Assembly: GCF_030384885.1 (NCBI RefSeq)
Contig: NZ_CP128613.1
DNA length: 64,000 nucleotides
Origin: Escherichia coli
GTDB taxonomy: Bacteria; Pseudomonadota; Gammaproteobacteria; Enterobacterales; Enterobacteriaceae
Direction: 5' to 3' (one strand)
Shown here piece after piece: positions 40,444 to 48,750 of this stretch; positions within the stretch are counted from its first letter, which is position 1; each line of letters opens with the position of its first letter. Below the pieces are notes generated by a model. It did no database searches. It saw only the letters and a list, made by a program, of their open reading frames with translations, and was not told the DNA's origin. The position numbers were made by a program, and so were the translations under genes.

Positions 40444-40582
40444 GGTTTCTCTTTCCACTAGACAGATACACTGGTTGTCGGCCTGGTGGTGGAAAACTTT
40501 ATGCTGTGGAAAAGCGTCGGCACTGCTTTTGTTGCAGCAAACTTGCGTTTTTTGTGAGGGTCACACTCTATAGCGGCAGTTT

Positions 40583-41488
40583 ATGGTACAAAGTATCAAT
40601 CTTCTTCGAACCAGTGATACTCCTATGGCTTATAGCATCGATATCATCTCCTGCATTACCGAACGATTTATGGCGTTAACAGCCACTGAAAAGCGTATCG
40701 CACAATTTATTCTTGATGATGTCCCCGCCGCGGTGGAACTGCCAATTGCTGAGCTGGCACGGTTAACGCAAACCAGTCAGGCGTCGGTGACGCGTTTTGC
40801 CCGTGCTCTGGGGTGTAAAGATGTCCGCGAGCTGAAAGTCAAACTGGCGCAGTCACTGGCTATCGGGCAGCGGTTTATTCTCGATGTACCGGATCTTGAC
40901 GGTGTTCAGGGGATCTACGAAGCGATTATTAGCGTGCTGGAAACGCATCGTCGTTCGCTGGATATGAATGCCATCAGCCAGGCGGTAAGCTGGTTAAGTC
41001 AGGCGCGGCAAATTCTTGCATTGGGAACTGGCGGCGGTTCCACCATCTGTTCACAGGAGATTCAGTACCGTTTATTCCGTCTGGGGCTACCTGTGGTTAG
41101 TCAGAATGATGCCCTGATGATGAGAATGATGTGCTCGGCAGTGATGCCGCAGGATGTGGTGATTGTGCTGTCGCTGGGCGGTTATACACCGGAAATCATC
41201 GAAAGTGCGGCAATCGCCCGTCAGTATGGCGCGCGTGTTATTGCCATTACGCCAGCACAAACACCGCTGGCGGAACAGGTGGATCTGGTATTGCCGTTAC
41301 TGGTTCAGGAAAGTGATTACATCTTTAAGCCCACCCCTTCCCGCTACGCGGTGTTAGCCATGGTCGATGTACTGGCAACAGAACTGGCAATGGCAAATAA
41401 AGCGCAGGCGAAAGATCGCCTGCGGCGGATAAAACTGGTGTTAGACAGCCACCGTGGGGGCGCTAACCGCCAGCCACTTGGCGATTAG
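40583..41488 (+). CDS. RpiR/MurR-family transcriptional regulator (HTH plus SIS sugar-phosphate-binding domain)
   Basis: N-terminal HTH (EKRIAQFILDD...ELARLTQTSQASVTRFARALG) and C-terminal SIS-like region; true start may be the Met at 40625. Absent between tsr and btsT in my recollection of K-12. Confidence 0.75.
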   Translation: MVQSINLLRTSDTPMAYSIDIISCITERFMALTATEKRIAQFILDDVPAAVELPIAELARLTQTSQASVTRFARALGCKDVRELKVKLAQSLAIGQRFILDVPDLDGVQGIYEAIISVLETHRRSLDMNAISQAVSWLSQARQILALGTGGGSTICSQEIQYRLFRLGLPVVSQNDALMMRMMCSAVMPQDVVIVLSLGGYTPEIIESAAIARQYGARVIAITPAQTPLAEQVDLVLPLLVQESDYIFKPTPSRYAVLAMVDVLATELAMANKAQAKDRLRRIKLVLDSHRGGANRQPLGD

Positions 41489-41497
41489 CATTGTCGG

Positions 41498-42967
41498 TTA
41501 TGCTTCTTCAGGTTTGGTGATCACGACACTCTGGTTTTCACGCTCATTGGTGATAATAGCCAGAGCTTCTTCCCGGCTGACCTGACTTGCTGGCGTTACC
41601 AGCGTCACCACTACGCCAGCGAACAGGCTGCCCAGCACTGACGGAATACACGGGTTACCCCAGTAAGCCAGCCAGTCGGCATTCATCAGCACCACAATGG
41701 ACATCACCATACCGCTCACTAACGCCGCCAGCGCGCCCTGCCAGTTAAAGCGTAGCCAGAAGCGACCGAGAATCGAGCAGATAAACAGCCCGGACATCAG
41801 CATCGAAATCATTTTGGTAATGTAGCTGATGATGTCATTAGAGGTCAGAGCAAAGACCAGCGCCAGGCCAATAACAAAGGTCAACATACAGCGTGAGTAA
41901 GTAATGGCCTTGTCCTCCGGCGGCATTCTGCCGGTAATCATGGTGTAGACGTCGCGCATCATAATCGCCACCGCCGCGATGGCATCGGAGCTGGCGGAAG
42001 ACATGGTGGCTGAAAGCCCGGCAATCAGCACCACCAGCCCAAGAATGGCAGGTAAGAAACTGGTCGCGAACAAGAAGGCGTAGTTGCTGTTTTCCAGATT
42101 TGGGTTCATGGTGAACGCCGCCATGCCGATAATGGCAGGCAGAATCGAGAAGAACAGATACAACACGCCAGTAATAACAAATGAACGCCGTACAGAGGGA
42201 ACGTCTTTTCCCGAGTAAATACGCTGGCGATAAGATGGTGTGGCCAGTACGCCGACACCAATAACCAGCGCCAGCGAAAGCGCAGGCAGCACGCCCATTT
42301 TATCAATCGCAAACAGGCTCATCGCTTTTGGGTCCATCGCCTGTTCAATCGCACTCCAGCCACCAACGTGAACAACGGCAAGAATAGCCATTAATATAAA
42401 GCCAAAGAACAGAATTAGGGCCTGAATAGTATCTGTCCACACTACCGCCGAATAACCGCCGATAATAACGTAAATCGCAAAAGCTAAGGCAATAATTAAT
42501 TTTGCCACCGTAAGATCAATACCTGTTGCCCAGGCAAGATACATACTTCCACCTAATATATGCGCCCCCAGCCAGCCAATAGAGGCAATAAATATCATCA
42601 GGCCGACAATATTTTTAATTAAATGGCTGCCGCCAGTATAATAAGATATTTCTTCACTCATGGTCATAAAACGTAATTTACGTACCGGTGCAAACAGCCA
42701 CGCCACCAGTAATATACCTACGGCCCCACCGACGCCATAAAGCATTCCGGCCCAGCCATTGCTGTAGCCAAAGCCCACTGCGCCCATACTGGAACCCGTG
42801 CCAACCATCGTGGCAACGGTTGACCCCAGCGTCAGAAACAGCGGCAGCGAACGCCCGCCCAGCAGAAAATCTTCTCCGCTTTTCTGATTACGAGAAACAA
42901 ACCAACCAAGCCAAATCATGGCGATGGCATAAATAATAAAGCCGACTAAAAAGATATGACTGTTCAT
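41498..42967 (-). CDS. Sodium:solute symporter family transporter
   Basis: 489-aa polytopic membrane protein with SSS-like N-terminal region (GGRSLPLFLTLGSTVATMVGTGSSMGAVGFGY...). Confidence 0.75.
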   Translation of the reverse strand: MNSHIFLVGFIIYAIAMIWLGWFVSRNQKSGEDFLLGGRSLPLFLTLGSTVATMVGTGSSMGAVGFGYSNGWAGMLYGVGGAVGILLVAWLFAPVRKLRFMTMSEEISYYTGGSHLIKNIVGLMIFIASIGWLGAHILGGSMYLAWATGIDLTVAKLIIALAFAIYVIIGGYSAVVWTDTIQALILFFGFILMAILAVVHVGGWSAIEQAMDPKAMSLFAIDKMGVLPALSLALVIGVGVLATPSYRQRIYSGKDVPSVRRSFVITGVLYLFFSILPAIIGMAAFTMNPNLENSNYAFLFATSFLPAILGLVVLIAGLSATMSSASSDAIAAVAIMMRDVYTMITGRMPPEDKAITYSRCMLTFVIGLALVFALTSNDIISYITKMISMLMSGLFICSILGRFWLRFNWQGALAALVSGMVMSIVVLMNADWLAYWGNPCIPSVLGSLFAGVVVTLVTPASQVSREEALAIITNERENQSVVITKPEEA

Positions 42968-43069
42968 AATTCACATCCTGCCAGTAGAGAGAGAATAATG
43001 TAAGAGTTCCCGGAGTGCTGAATGTATTCAGCACTCAATTGCGGTCTGTTTTTTTAATTCTTAAATTTA

Positions 43070-43465
43070 TTAGCGGGTCGCGTTATAACAGGTCACATCG
43101 ACTTCGACTTTACAATCGACAACCAGATCAGCCACACAACAAATACGTGCAGGCGGATTCTCGCCAAAAAATTCTCTGAATACTTTATTAAATGACTGGA
43201 AATAGCGGGCGTCGGTCAGGATCACTTTCACGTGAACCACATCCGCCAGGCTATAACCGGTTTCAGTCATGATGTCGACACAGTTTTGGATCGCCAGTCG
43301 TGACTGTTCAACGATTCCGCCTTCTATCACTTCACCGTTTTTCATGGGTGTTTGCCCGGAGACGTACAGCCAGCCGCCCGCCTCAACCGCCCTGGCAAAA
43401 GGCAAATGCTGCCCGCCAGTGCCTGTTCCACCTTCCGTACCGTAACGTTTAATGCTCATATTCAC
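43070..43465 (-). CDS. RidA/YjgF-family reactive-intermediate (enamine/imine) deaminase
   Basis: About 130 aa with RidA-like fold signature (...ARICCVADLV...); directly downstream of the aminoacylase gene. Confidence 0.7.
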   Translation of the reverse strand: MNMSIKRYGTEGGTGTGGQHLPFARAVEAGGWLYVSGQTPMKNGEVIEGGIVEQSRLAIQNCVDIMTETGYSLADVVHVKVILTDARYFQSFNKVFREFFGENPPARICCVADLVVDCKVEVDVTCYNATR

Positions 43466-43468
43466 TCC

Positions 43469-44920
43469 TTAATGTGAGGTCTGCCGGCGCAGGAAGCGTC
43501 CCGCACGGCCTGTAATATGTTTATCGCGACCATAGCTCATAACGCCGTTCACCATCACCGCCTCAATGCCATCTGCCGGGCGTTTGGGATCAGAAAAGCT
43601 GGCAACATCACGAATGGTTTGTGGATCGAACAACACCAGGTCCGCAAAATAGCCAACTTTCACCAGTCCACGCTGGGGCAGGCGAAAACGGCTGGCAGAA
43701 AGCCCGGTCATTTTGTGGATAGCCGTGGTCAGTGGGAATAAGCCTTCATCACGGCAATAGTGGCCCAGCACACGAGGGAAGGCGCCCCATAAACGTGGAT
43801 GCGGCATGGGATCATTGGGCAGGCCGTCAGAGCCAATCATACTGACCGGATAACTCAACACTCGGCGGACGTCGCGCTCGTCCATGTTGTAATAGATAGC
43901 CCCGGCAGGCATTAGCAGCTTCGCGGCCTCCAGCATACTCATCTGCCAGTCGATGGCGATTTGCGCCAGTGTTTTTCCGGCCTGCTGCGGATGTGTTTGT
44001 GACCAGGTGATCACAATATCGAATTCGTCGGTGACTTGTTTGAGATCCAGCGTTGATGAACTGGCTGAGTAAGGGTAGACATCGCAGCCAATTTCCTGGT
44101 GTTGACGCATTTGGTCAAAAAAAGCCAACGTTTCTTTTGTCCGCCCCCAGTTTTTCGCCCCGGCGCATTTATGGTGGGAAACCACGACAGGCACTTTGCC
44201 ATGACGCCCAATACGAAACGCCTCATCCAGGGCATCGAGAATCGGTTCAAATTCAGAACGCAGATGGGTGGTATAAACGCCCTTCTCACCGGCTAATTCT
44301 TCCGCCAGCGCCATGACTTCTTCGGTAGTCGCCTGAAATGCTGTGGCATAGGCCAGCCCGGAACTTAACCCCAGCGCCCCCTGACTCAACGCCAGACGTA
44401 AGTCGGCACGCATAGCGGCAATTTCATCCACCGTCGCCGGGCGAAACAGGTCGTCCATATGGTTATTACGCAGCGCCGTATGACCAATCAGCGTGCCAAC
44501 GTTCAGTGACGGCCTGGCTGCTTCCACTGCCTGGGCATAGCTTTCAACGGTAGGATAAATAAAGTGCTCTGCTTCCCCCAGCAGATTCATCGGGTCAGGA
44601 ACTTCGCCTTTCATTTTCGCCGACGCCGCACTGATCCCGCAGTTACCGACAATCACCGTGGTGATCCCCTGGCTGATCTTTGGCAGATATTCCGGGATGC
44701 GAATAACGTTGATATCGTCATGGGTATGAACGTCGATAAACCCTGGTGCCAGCACCCGCCCTTCCCCGTCAATGACCTGCTGCGCCGTAACGTTAAGCGC
44801 AGGGGCAATATCGACAATCCGATCACCTGTTATTGCCACGTCACCGCGAAATTCAGGGCCGCCGCTACCGTCGATAACGGTCACATTTTTGATTAACCAG
44901 TCAACCTGCATGTTCGTCAC
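43469..44920 (-). CDS. N-acyl-D-amino-acid deacylase (D-aminoacylase), amidohydrolase superfamily
   Basis: 483-aa ORF with metal-binding HxH near the N-terminus (GFIDVHTHDD) and D-aminoacylase-like architecture. Confidence 0.7.
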   Translation of the reverse strand: MTNMQVDWLIKNVTVIDGSGGPEFRGDVAITGDRIVDIAPALNVTAQQVIDGEGRVLAPGFIDVHTHDDINVIRIPEYLPKISQGITTVIVGNCGISAASAKMKGEVPDPMNLLGEAEHFIYPTVESYAQAVEAARPSLNVGTLIGHTALRNNHMDDLFRPATVDEIAAMRADLRLALSQGALGLSSGLAYATAFQATTEEVMALAEELAGEKGVYTTHLRSEFEPILDALDEAFRIGRHGKVPVVVSHHKCAGAKNWGRTKETLAFFDQMRQHQEIGCDVYPYSASSSTLDLKQVTDEFDIVITWSQTHPQQAGKTLAQIAIDWQMSMLEAAKLLMPAGAIYYNMDERDVRRVLSYPVSMIGSDGLPNDPMPHPRLWGAFPRVLGHYCRDEGLFPLTTAIHKMTGLSASRFRLPQRGLVKVGYFADLVLFDPQTIRDVASFSDPKRPADGIEAVMVNGVMSYGRDKHITGRAGRFLRRQTSH

Positions 44921-45111
44921 TCCATTTCTGCAATGGTGACAAGTTAACCATTTACAAGGACGAAAAACAGTGGAAAACTACGCAAAACCCAGATGATTTT
45001 CTGATACTTTTATTCATAAATCATAAGATAAATAAACTAAATATTTATATTTCATTTAGTTACAAATGATACTCATATCCGATACGGTGAAAAACTTAAA
45101 AGGTGAATGTT

Positions 45112-46332
45112 ATGAAATACCACTCTGAACCTCTGGTTCCCCATAAATCTGCCCTGATGCAAATGCCCGCAAATCTCCTTGCCGAAGATGTCTGTTTACC
45201 TGCCGCGATCATTAAAAAGCAGGCCCTGGAGAACAACATTACGTGGATGCAGCGTTATGCTGACGCGCGCGGCGTTTCACTGGCACCGCACGGTAAAACG
45301 ACCATGACGCCGTGGATTTTTCAGGCGCAGCAGGCCGCAGGTGCCTGGGCAATAGGTGTCGGTAGCGCATGGCAGGCTGGTGCGGCAATGGCGAGCGGTA
45401 TTCAGCGAGTGCTGATGGTTAACCAGTTGGTCGGCAAGGCGAATATGCAGTTGATTGCCCAGTTGCAACGGCATTACCCGACGGTCGATTTTATCTGCTG
45501 TATCGACAGCATTGAGAACGCCCGCGCTTTGTCTGCCTTTTTTGCCAGTCAGCAACAGACACTGAACGTGATGATTGAGTTGGGTGTTCCCGGCGGACGC
45601 TGTGGTTGCCGCTCAACGGATGCCGCACTGGCACTGGCTAAACAGGCGGCCCAATTACCAGGGCTACGTCTGCGCGGGCTTGAGTTATATGAAGGTGTTT
45701 TACACGGTGACGATCCACAACCGCAGGTAGAAGCACTGCTGCGGGATGCCGCACAACTGGCCTGTGATATGGCAAGTCTGGTTGATGGCGAGTTTATTCT
45801 CACCGGAGCAGGCACTGTCTGGTATGACGTGGTGTGCAATATCTGGCTGGCGGCAGAAAAGCCTGATAACTGCCGCATTGTTATTCGCCCTGGCTGCTAC
45901 ATCACTCACGACACCGGGATCTACGACGCGGCACAACAACAGTTGCTTGCCCGCGATCCTGTGGCCTGCGATCTGGCAGGCGATCTCACATCTGCGCTGG
46001 AACTGGTCGCCATGGTGCAATCGGTGCCGGAAGCTGATCGTGCGGTGGTAAATTTTGGTAAGCGTGATTGCGCCTTCGACGCCGGACTGCCGCAACCAGT
46101 CGCCCACTATCGCAACGGCAAATCACTGGCATTTGATCCACAGGCGATTCGCAGTACAGGCATTATGGATCAGCACTGCATGTTGCAACTGTCAGCTAAT
46201 AGCGACGTGCAAGTGGGGGATATTCTGGTGTTTGGCACATCGCATCCGTGCCTGACCTTCGACAAATGGAAAACGTTGTTATTGGCTGATGACGACTACA
46301 ACGTACTGGCGGAATTAGACACTCTCTTCTAA
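45112..46332 (+). CDS. PLP-dependent alanine-racemase-fold enzyme, DSD1 / D-threonine-aldolase / D-serine-dehydratase-like
   Basis: About 406 aa; PHGKT motif (putative PLP-lysine) typical of the DSD1/D-threonine aldolase family; RBS-like AAAGGTG upstream. Confidence 0.65.
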   Translation: MKYHSEPLVPHKSALMQMPANLLAEDVCLPAAIIKKQALENNITWMQRYADARGVSLAPHGKTTMTPWIFQAQQAAGAWAIGVGSAWQAGAAMASGIQRVLMVNQLVGKANMQLIAQLQRHYPTVDFICCIDSIENARALSAFFASQQQTLNVMIELGVPGGRCGCRSTDAALALAKQAAQLPGLRLRGLELYEGVLHGDDPQPQVEALLRDAAQLACDMASLVDGEFILTGAGTVWYDVVCNIWLAAEKPDNCRIVIRPGCYITHDTGIYDAAQQQLLARDPVACDLAGDLTSALELVAMVQSVPEADRAVVNFGKRDCAFDAGLPQPVAHYRNGKSLAFDPQAIRSTGIMDQHCMLQLSANSDVQVGDILVFGTSHPCLTFDKWKTLLLADDDYNVLAELDTLF

Positions 46333-46337
46333 GAATA

Positions 46338-46369
46338 CCCCTTCGGTTAATTATCGAAGGGGCATTTTT
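46338..46369 (+). terminator. Rho-independent terminator after the DSD1-like gene
   Basis: CCCCTTCG...CGAAGGGG hairpin followed by a T-tract. Confidence 0.7.
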
Positions 46370-46415
46370 ATTGTGATCTCAATCACATATCCACCCGACG
46401 AATAATTCTTGCCCA

Positions 46416-46443
46416 ACCGCTTACCGCCATTCCTGACCGCTTA
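46416..46443. promoter_or_regulatory. BtsR (YehT) response-regulator binding site upstream of btsT
   Basis: Direct repeat ACCGCTTA – 12 nt – ACCGCTTA, matching the described ACC(G/T)CTTA direct-repeat motif, about 140 bp upstream of the btsT start. Confidence 0.55.
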
Positions 46444-46584
46444 CGTCCCTAAAATAACCACTCAGTTATTTACCTTACTTTACGCGCGCGTAACTCTGGC
46501 AACATCACTGCAGGATAGCGGTCAATTTACCTCCTCAAACGCAACGCAAACCTAGAACGGCTTCGGCCAACTATTAATCAATAC

Positions 46585-48750
46585 ATGCCAGGTTTTACTA
46601 TGGATACTAAAAAGATATTCAAGCACATACCCTGGGTGATTCTCGGAATCATCGGTGCATTCTGCCTCGCGGTAGTTGCATTACGTCGGGGGGAGCACGT
46701 CAGTGCCCTGTGGATCGTGGTCGCCTCTGTGTCGGTGTATCTGGTGGCTTATCGCTACTACAGTCTGTACATCGCCCAGAAAGTGATGAAACTCGACCCC
46801 ACGCGCGCGACGCCTGCGGTTATTAACAATGACGGTCTGAACTATGTTCCGACCAACCGTTACGTGTTGTTTGGTCACCACTTCGCCGCTATCGCCGGTG
46901 CGGGTCCGCTGGTTGGTCCGGTTCTCGCCGCGCAGATGGGCTACCTGCCTGGCACTCTGTGGCTGCTGGCGGGGGTAGTGCTGGCCGGTGCGGTACAGGA
47001 CTTTATGGTGCTGTTTATCTCCTCTCGCCGTAACGGTGCATCTCTCGGTGAGATGATCAAAGAAGAGATGGGGCCAGTGCCGGGGACTATCGCGCTGTTT
47101 GGCTGTTTCTTAATCATGATCATCATCCTCGCCGTTCTGGCGCTGATTGTGGTTAAAGCCCTGGCCGAAAGTCCGTGGGGTGTCTTCACCGTTTGCTCAA
47201 CCGTACCAATTGCGCTGTTTATGGGTATCTACATGCGCTTTATCCGTCCGGGACGTGTAGGTGAAGTCTCTGTTATTGGTATCGTGCTGCTGGTTGCCTC
47301 TATCTACTTCGGTGGCGTAATTGCTCACGATCCGTACTGGGGTCCGGCACTGACCTTTAAAGACACCACCATTACCTTCGCGCTGATTGGCTATGCGTTT
47401 GTTTCCGCACTGCTGCCGGTGTGGCTGATCCTCGCACCGCGCGACTATCTGGCAACCTTCCTGAAAATCGGCGTTATCGTCGGCCTGGCGCTGGGTATCG
47501 TGGTGTTGAACCCGGAACTGAAAATGCCTGCGATGACGCAGTACATTGACGGTACTGGCCCGCTGTGGAAAGGCGCTCTGTTCCCGTTCCTGTTCATCAC
47601 CATCGCCTGTGGTGCGGTATCTGGCTTCCACGCGCTGATCTCTTCCGGTACGACGCCGAAACTGCTGGCTAACGAAACCGACGCGCGTTTCATTGGCTAC
47701 GGCGCAATGCTGATGGAGTCCTTCGTGGCGATTATGGCGCTGGTTGCTGCATCCATCATCGAACCGGGTCTTTACTTCGCGATGAATACCCCGCCTGCGG
47801 GCCTTGGCATCACCATGCCTAACCTGCATGAAATGGGTGGCGAGAACGCGCCGATCATCATGGCGCAGCTGAAAGACGTTACCGCACACGCGGCAGCGAC
47901 TGTCAGCTCCTGGGGCTTCGTGATTTCGCCAGAGCAGATCCTGCAAACCGCGAAAGACATTGGTGAGCCTTCTGTCCTGAACCGTGCAGGTGGTGCGCCG
48001 ACGCTGGCGGTAGGTATCGCTCACGTGTTCCACAAAGTGCTGCCGATGGCTGACATGGGCTTCTGGTATCACTTCGGTATTCTGTTCGAAGCCCTGTTCA
48101 TCCTGACCGCGCTGGATGCGGGTACCCGTTCTGGCCGCTTTATGCTGCAAGACCTGCTGGGTAACTTCATCCCGTTCCTGAAAAAAACCGATTCTCTGGT
48201 TGCCGGTATCATCGGTACTGCGGGCTGTGTGGGTCTGTGGGGCTACCTGCTGTATCAGGGCGTGGTCGATCCGCTGGGCGGCGTTAAGAGCCTGTGGCCG
48301 CTGTTCGGTATCTCCAACCAGATGCTGGCAGCCGTAGCGCTGGTACTGGGCACCGTTGTGCTGATTAAGATGAAGCGCACCCAATACATCTGGGTGACTG
48401 TTGTTCCGGCTGTATGGCTGCTTATCTGCACCACCTGGGCGCTGGGCCTGAAACTGTTCAGCACCAACCCGCAGATGGAAGGCTTCTTCTATATGGCAAG
48501 CCAGTACAAAGAGAAGATTGCTAACGGTACTGACCTGACGGCACAGCAGATTGCCAACATGAACCACATCGTTGTGAACAACTACACCAACGCGGGCCTG
48601 AGTATTCTGTTCCTGATTGTGGTGTACAGCATCATCTTCTACGGTTTCAAAACCTGGTTGAAGGTGCGTAACAGCGACAAACGTACTGACAAAGAAACAC
48701 CGTACGTTCCAATCCCGGAAGGCGGCGTGAAGATCTCTTCGCACCACTAA
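46585..48750 (+). CDS. btsT: CstA-family pyruvate/H+ symporter BtsT (YjiY)
   Basis: 721-aa polytopic CstA-family ORF; synteny with yjiX and yjiA. Confidence 0.92.
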   Translation: MPGFTMDTKKIFKHIPWVILGIIGAFCLAVVALRRGEHVSALWIVVASVSVYLVAYRYYSLYIAQKVMKLDPTRATPAVINNDGLNYVPTNRYVLFGHHFAAIAGAGPLVGPVLAAQMGYLPGTLWLLAGVVLAGAVQDFMVLFISSRRNGASLGEMIKEEMGPVPGTIALFGCFLIMIIILAVLALIVVKALAESPWGVFTVCSTVPIALFMGIYMRFIRPGRVGEVSVIGIVLLVASIYFGGVIAHDPYWGPALTFKDTTITFALIGYAFVSALLPVWLILAPRDYLATFLKIGVIVGLALGIVVLNPELKMPAMTQYIDGTGPLWKGALFPFLFITIACGAVSGFHALISSGTTPKLLANETDARFIGYGAMLMESFVAIMALVAASIIEPGLYFAMNTPPAGLGITMPNLHEMGGENAPIIMAQLKDVTAHAAATVSSWGFVISPEQILQTAKDIGEPSVLNRAGGAPTLAVGIAHVFHKVLPMADMGFWYHFGILFEALFILTALDAGTRSGRFMLQDLLGNFIPFLKKTDSLVAGIIGTAGCVGLWGYLLYQGVVDPLGGVKSLWPLFGISNQMLAAVALVLGTVVLIKMKRTQYIWVTVVPAVWLLICTTWALGLKLFSTNPQMEGFFYMASQYKEKIANGTDLTAQQIANMNHIVVNNYTNAGLSILFLIVVYSIIFYGFKTWLKVRNSDKRTDKETPYVPIPEGGVKISSHH

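Follow-up and report, generated by a model that had tools for sequence, protein, structure and literature searches.

Genomic Context of btsT

The stretch of E. coli DNA analyzed here (64 kb, hereafter the window) carries on its plus strand, at 46600–48750, the gene btsT (yjiY), which RefSeq annotates as encoding a pyruvate/H+ symporter of 716 aa. External pyruvate is sensed by BtsS, which together with BtsR activates btsT (PMC5431176; PMC7730263; PMC10653868). In K-12, BtsR (YehT, a response regulator of the LytTR type) binds the region of the btsT promoter that contains the two elements called box1 and box2 below (PMC4847170). The locus is therefore already known as a BtsR-controlled promoter, and it is seen here in a strain other than K-12. 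The btsR gene itself lies outside the window, as does btsS; of 5426 complete E. coli genomes, 5425 have btsR, and the near-identical strain 2013C-4282 belongs to this collection. Translation from the annotated start codon of btsT begins with MDTKKIFK, a start common to orthologues at 90–100% identity in 80 genomes. Another in-frame ATG at 46585, 15 nt before the annotated start and inside the leader, gives the longer mechanical ORF of 721 aa.

The upstream neighbor of btsT differs from that in K-12, as the preliminary description had stated. In place of the divergent tsr of K-12, the window has an amino acid deaminase gene that is co-directional with btsT (RefSeq CDS 45112–46332, plus strand, within an ORF at 45103–46332) and ends at 46332. 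Over 31 kb, the window is 99.965% identical, with one indel, to E. coli strain 2013C-4282 (blastn), and the names of the accessory genes are taken from the RefSeq annotation of that strain. Its gene order is tsr (minus strand), a MurR/RpiR regulator, a sodium:solute symporter, RidA, an N-acyl-D-amino-acid deacylase, the amino acid deaminase, and btsT-yjiX-yjiA. The accessory segment absent from K-12, of which the deaminase is the last gene, extends approximately from 40504 to 46371 and takes the place of about 90 bp of the K-12 tsr–btsT spacer. On its left, homology to K-12 (tsr and the region upstream of it) stops at about 40503, while on its right colinearity resumes at a CRP-like site that begins at 46372. 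The deaminase is found next to btsT in 159 of 5426 complete E. coli genomes.

No indel interrupts the 228 nt from the CRP-like site to the ATG of btsT, over which the window is colinear with K-12, and from box1 to the ATG the two agree at 162 of 164 positions. These two comparisons place the end of the accessory segment upstream of 46372, not between the repeat and btsT, and they bear out the proposal that the control region was left intact. In a megablast comparison, similarity to K-12 breaks at about 46433, between the two copies of the repeat; this break was rejected as the island junction since the region is colinear, and it reflects allelic divergence. A terminator reported at 46338–46369 was recovered by a terminator scan, with a stem at 46338–46362 followed by CATTTTTATT. 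As an intrinsic terminator on the plus strand it spans 46338–46372 and consists of a 10-bp stem (CCCCTTCGGT/ATCGAAGGGG) and a T tract, and it would block read-through from the deaminase gene. With the accessory cluster stopping short of the CRP site and closed by a terminator of its own, the control of btsT should be insulated as well as intact, and pyruvate-responsive expression would be undisturbed by the neighboring D-amino-acid cluster.

No mobility genes are found among the five annotated genes between tsr and btsT, which have metabolic, transport, and regulatory functions. The label "mobile genomic island" was set aside, as no integrase or transposase is annotated there. The locus is more aptly seen as a recombination hot spot that can hold any of several alternative accessory cassettes, of which this segment is one. 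In other strains the tsr–btsT gap is occupied by the hpa operon (L003), a hydroxyproline-type oxidoreductase cluster (L004), a hypothetical gene in O157:H7 (L006), or an IS3 element (L007), and it is empty in K-12, Nissle, and FDAARGOS_1289. When these arrangements are aligned to the window, identity begins inside the terminator for hpa-type strains and at the CRP site for the hydroxyproline-type strain. Apart from the IS3 insertion, all of the arrangements seen keep the CRP site and the three boxes described below. The tsr–btsT gap can accordingly be viewed as an E. coli hot spot of cassette exchange, the right edge of which lies just short of the CRP site in the aligned cassette types.

Two further features of this gap deserve mention. 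The terminators that follow the deaminase gene and hpaC (L003, L090, L091) have in common a TAAG stop-codon context, the stem arms (CCCCTTC / CGAAGGGG), and the T tract, with unrelated loops. A shared stem with a differing loop suggests either cassette exchange with its breakpoint inside the stem-loop or retention of an ancestral terminator in both cases. In strain ABWA45 (L007), the IS3-family element sits in the btsT leader with its breakpoint at the equivalent of about 46519, just past the predicted transcription start site (TSS). The insertion separates btsT from its promoter, its BtsR boxes, and the CRP site, and control of btsT may be lost or rewired as a result.

Architecture of the btsT Promoter

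The preliminary description had drawn attention to a direct repeat upstream of btsT, and the sequence reads as given there: ACCGCTTA at 46416–46423, a spacer of 12 nt (CCGCCATTCCTG), and ACCGCTTA again at 46436–46443. The arrangement ACCGCTTA-N12-ACCGCTTA is found once in the window even when up to two mismatches are allowed, against an expectation of 0.03 from shuffled sequences. The degenerate form ACCRCTYA has 10 matches in the window, three of which fall inside 49 bp at this locus. All three matches to ACC[G/A]CT[C/T]A have the same (plus) orientation, and they start at 46416, 46436, and 46457. They are referred to here as box0 (ACCGCTTA, 46416–46423), which is the upstream copy of the repeat, box1 (ACCGCTTA, 46436–46443), which is the downstream copy, and box2 (ACCACTCA, 46457–46464), which lies 13 bp past box1.

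The boxes are spaced 20–21 bp from start to start, or about two helical turns, which would put them on one face of the DNA. When a conserved 5′ purine is included, each box becomes a 9-mer, RACCGCTYA, and the gaps are 11–12 nt (12–13 bp between the 8-nt cores). This places the boxes within the known architecture of LytTR operators, in which repeats of 9–11 nt are separated by spacers of 11–13 nt and flanking DNA matters for binding (PMC4847170). The distance from the repeat to btsT had been given as about 140 bp, a value measured to the upstream in-frame ATG at 46585, where the mechanical ORF starts. The annotated, conserved start codon at 46600 lies 156 nt from the end of the repeat, so the earlier figure is 15 nt too short.

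Upstream of the boxes, at 46372–46387, is the CRP-like site TGTGATCTCAATCACA, the sole perfect TGTGA-N6-TCACA in the window (0.04 expected by chance). This palindrome stands in a promoter region known to be CRP-dependent, as btsT expression requires cAMP/CRP (PMC5431176; PMC7730263), and it is a putative CRP-binding site.

Because a scan with the sigma-70 consensus found no canonical promoter on the plus strand, the −10 element and the TSS were assigned from conservation and from the numbering of a published reporter. The putative extended −10 element, TGGCAACAT (46497–46505, plus strand), corresponds to a conserved block, TCTGGCAnGAT, in a 33-sequence alignment of the window, K-12, and 31 genus-level representatives. 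The TSS is predicted at about 46512, 7 nt past this element, and the published reporter 'PbtsT -212/+88' (PMC10653868) would then fit an 88-nt leader (46512–46599, plus strand) that ends just before the ATG. On this predicted numbering the centers fall at −51.5 for box2, −72.5 for box1, −92.5 for box0, and about −132.5 for the CRP site.

The leader is interrupted in some relatives. An insert of about 123 bp just before the ribosome-binding region (L003:3228-3354, at the equivalent of about 46580) is carried by E. albertii, Escherichia sp. E1V33 (also L010, L011), and E. coli of the hpa type; among E. coli, 2065 of 5426 genomes have it. The insert resembles an ERIC element (GTGAATCCCC...GGGGTGA). 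Translation of btsT is also subject to the action of CsrA (PMC5431176; PMC7730263; PMC10653868).

Location of the Published BtsR Site

The original finding on BtsR/YehT has been summarized as a direct repeat whose copies are 13 bp apart (PMC4222967). The K-12 'yjiY YehT binding site' oligo used by the laboratory that defined the site is CCTTTGCCGCTCAACCGCAAAACTGACCGCTTACATCCCTAAAATAACCACTCAGTTA (PMC4847170). Within this oligo, the boxes are arranged as GCCGCTCA-N12-ACCGCTTA-N13-ACCACTCA. The YehT/BtsR motif is said to have been given as ACC[G/A]CT[C/T]A in the 2012 abstract by Kraxenberger, and the K-12 oligo is consistent with that form. With boxes of 8 nt, ACCGCTTA-N13-ACCACTCA is the sole arrangement in the oligo that fits both a 13-bp spacer and the alternatives [G/A] at position 4 and [C/T] at position 7, and it is therefore taken to be the published site. 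Judged by sequence and position, this site corresponds to 46436–46464 of the window, with box1 as its upstream half and box2 as its downstream half. Both boxes are positional orthologues of the K-12 elements, with identical sequence and equal distances to the ATG (−164 and −143). Box0 lies outside the published two-box site and is a candidate third phased box of the BtsR type.

The preliminary description had taken the pair at 46416–46443 for the BtsR site. This identification stands insofar as both copies fit the box consensus, but the pair is displaced upstream by one repeat unit, and box1 is all that it has in common with the published site. The alternative that the 46416–46443 pair is nevertheless the described site draws on that same fit and on the reach of the K-12 SPR oligo, which spans about −101 to −44 on the predicted numbering and so extends across the box0 position, where it takes in the degenerate box0 of K-12. 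Against it, the spacer of the pair is 12 bp and the published one is 13 bp, a length found in the window between box1 and box2 only and matched in the K-12 oligo by ACCGCTTA-N13-ACCACTCA alone when 8-nt boxes are used. In addition, the reported alternatives at positions 4 and 7 are exactly the differences between box1 and box2, and the box0 position in K-12 reads GCCGCTCA, which is outside the consensus. We consider this alternative very improbable. For annotation, the BtsR operator of the strain is best placed at 46436–46464, or at 46416–46464 if box0 is counted.

Conservation of Box0 Across Enterobacterales

To place box0 in a wider context, btsT loci were collected from 80 species-level Enterobacterales genomes, and the upstream regions of the 78 usable loci, which represent 36 genus-level groups, were scanned. 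One layout is found in all 78: a CRP-like site, box0 at +44 bp, box1 a further 20 bp downstream, and box2 20–21 bp beyond that. The distance of 44 bp between the CRP-like site and box0 is fixed in every one of these loci. Box0 is exact in 55/78 loci and has at most one mismatch in 77/78. The corresponding values are 69/78 and 78/78 for box1, and 55/78 and 78/78 for box2. At control offsets displaced by half a period, neither exact matches nor matches with at most one mismatch occur (0/78 for both), and the mean is 3.4–4.4 mismatches. One full period upstream of box0, an exact match is seen in 1/78 loci and a match with at most one mismatch in 10/78, and one period downstream of box2 these values are 1/78 and 4/78. 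Pairs of exact boxes occur almost solely at offsets of 20, 21, 40, and 41 bp. The register was chosen to minimize mismatches, which leans slightly toward a three-box arrangement; the contrast with the control offsets far exceeds what such a bias could yield.

The same picture is obtained from the 33-sequence alignment, in which conservation is confined to blocks at the CRP site, the three boxes, and the core promoter, and the spacers between the boxes are scrambled. The form of box0 present in the window, ACCGCTTA, is also the most frequent one across taxa (34/78). What these comparisons appear to add to the known promoter is a third phased box that is as conserved as box2 across 36 genus-level groups and degenerate in K-12. 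This is a modest extension, and a testable one.

Some lineages depart from the three-box layout in detail. Four phased boxes instead of three are present in some genera, including Pantoea (L078) and Phytobacter (L039 and L056), as well as at locus L076. In Enterobacter, Leclercia, Lelliottia, and Silvania (L047, L051, L057, L060, L062, L068), box0 reads ACCACTCG or ACCGCTCG and is contained in a conserved inverted repeat, GGCGAGCC(T/G)GAACC(A/G)CTCGCC, which hints at an extra or alternative element in this group. One further locus (L070, CACSKA010000015.1) is labeled Chryseobacterium sp. 18061; it has a btsT of the Enterobacteriaceae type (93% identity) with a full CRP and box promoter, and it is probably a case of assembly contamination or mislabeling.

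Promoter Haplotypes in E. coli

The btsT promoter of the window and the K-12 YehT/BtsR site in the yjiY (btsT) promoter (Kraxenberger et al. 2012, J Bacteriol 194:4272) belong to the same locus and gene, and they have identical box1 and box2 sequences with the same 13-bp spacing. They differ upstream of box1. Identity to K-12 is 14/16 in the CRP site, 8/28 in the spacer between the CRP site and box0, 6/8 in box0, and 6/12 in the spacer between box0 and box1. Box0 matches the consensus in the window (ACCGCTTA), whereas K-12 has the degenerate form GCCGCTCA. The 64 bp between the start of the CRP site and box1 are of another, widespread haplotype, and the upstream neighbor is the accessory gene cluster, not tsr.

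The haplotype of 46389–46435 is carried by 2261/5426 genomes, and the exact 47-mer is carried by only 3/5426 (blastn with the 47-mer). The perfect identity of the two copies of the repeat is thus due to a rare C-to-T change at 46422. The box0 allele of other island-bearing and of hpa-type E. coli is ACCGCTCA, and both ACCGCTTA and ACCGCTCA are within the consensus. O157 has a third distal-promoter haplotype, and E. albertii has the K-12 type. To judge from this pattern, the distal half of the promoter consists of old, deeply diverged haplotypes. In all of the E. coli distal haplotypes seen, the CRP site and box0 are kept in place, and this retention reads as a second footprint, one within the species.

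A Candidate Three-Box Operator

The reading that we consider likely is that the repeat at 46416–46443 represents the two upstream boxes of an array of three BtsR boxes, all in the same orientation, in the btsT promoter. In this arrangement, external pyruvate sensed by BtsS would lead to activated BtsR, the monomers of which would load cooperatively onto the phased boxes. Box2 would set BtsR beside RNA polymerase, while box0 and box1 would give additional or nucleating affinity. Help from upstream would come from cAMP-CRP, and the promoter downstream of the boxes would be a weak one of the extended −10 type. Like the −10 and TSS assignments, BtsR occupancy of box0 and the order of loading are inferred. 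Two observations run counter to this reading. K-12 regulates btsT with a degenerate box0, so an exact box0 is not strictly required, and a CRP site centered at about −132.5 is unusually distant for direct class I contact.

It is also conceivable that box0 is conserved for a reason other than BtsR: as the site of another factor, through a need for a particular DNA shape or bend between CRP and BtsR, or as a contact for alpha-CTD. The tolerance of a degenerate box0 in K-12 would agree with this, as would the Enterobacter, Leclercia, and Lelliottia forms of box0 (ACCACTCG or ACCGCTCG), which sit in an inverted repeat (GGCGAG...CTCGCC). A different factor, however, is not expected to require the same sequence as the BtsR boxes, and in 36 genus-level groups box0 repeats the 8–9-mer of the known boxes, shares their orientation, and keeps strictly to their 20-bp phasing, next to a spacer that is unconstrained. 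For these reasons a role of box0 unrelated to BtsR is regarded as unlikely. A chance similarity, or a local duplication that is neutral and without function, could be invoked because the perfect identity of the copies hangs on the single rare SNP at 46422. Yet the 0.03 matches expected by chance in the window, the conserved position of box0 across genera despite diverged flanks, and its retention in three deeply diverged distal-promoter haplotypes of E. coli make this explanation extremely hard to credit.

A broader proposal can also be made, which we rate as slightly less likely than not. The natural BtsR operator of Enterobacterales may be an array of three boxes (four in some genera), in which box0 and box1, with their 12-bp spacer, are ancestral and possibly nucleating and box0 has been weakened in K-12. 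The natural alleles GCCGCTCA, ACCGCTCA, and ACCGCTTA might then tune the threshold or the pulse shape of pyruvate-induced btsT expression. Should this proposal be true, the operator of the model strain K-12 would understate the system. A functional box0 would also refine the picture of how LytTR regulators assemble on promoters, and it would explain why about 25 nt of upstream sequence is needed in the published binding oligo.

Relation to Other Promoters

The combination of a perfect TGTGA-N6-TCACA upstream of the sites of a specific activator, together with known CRP dependence, recalls CRP-assisted promoters of the class III-like type. In those promoters CRP is classically located at −61.5 to −92.5, whereas the CRP site of btsT is at about −132.5 from the predicted TSS.

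Among LytTR systems, direct repeats of about 9–11 nt placed 11–13 nt apart are likewise found in the operator of YpdB (PyrR) in the yhjX promoter, in AgrA P2/P3, and in the operators of PlnC and VirR. These have been described as two-repeat operators, whereas nearly all of the Enterobacterales examined have three phased repeats in the btsT promoter. For YpdB, a paralogue of BtsR, monomers bind sequentially and cooperatively to one high-affinity and one low-affinity site (PMC4847170). The YpdB recognition sequence, GGCATTTCAT, is unrelated to the BtsR box. In the YpdB oligo from the yhjX promoter (PMC4847170), the two GGCATTTCAT repeats are preceded by about 23 nt, in which a degenerate copy, GTCATTCATT, is located one period upstream. 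A third phased box may therefore be shared by both E. coli LytTR systems.
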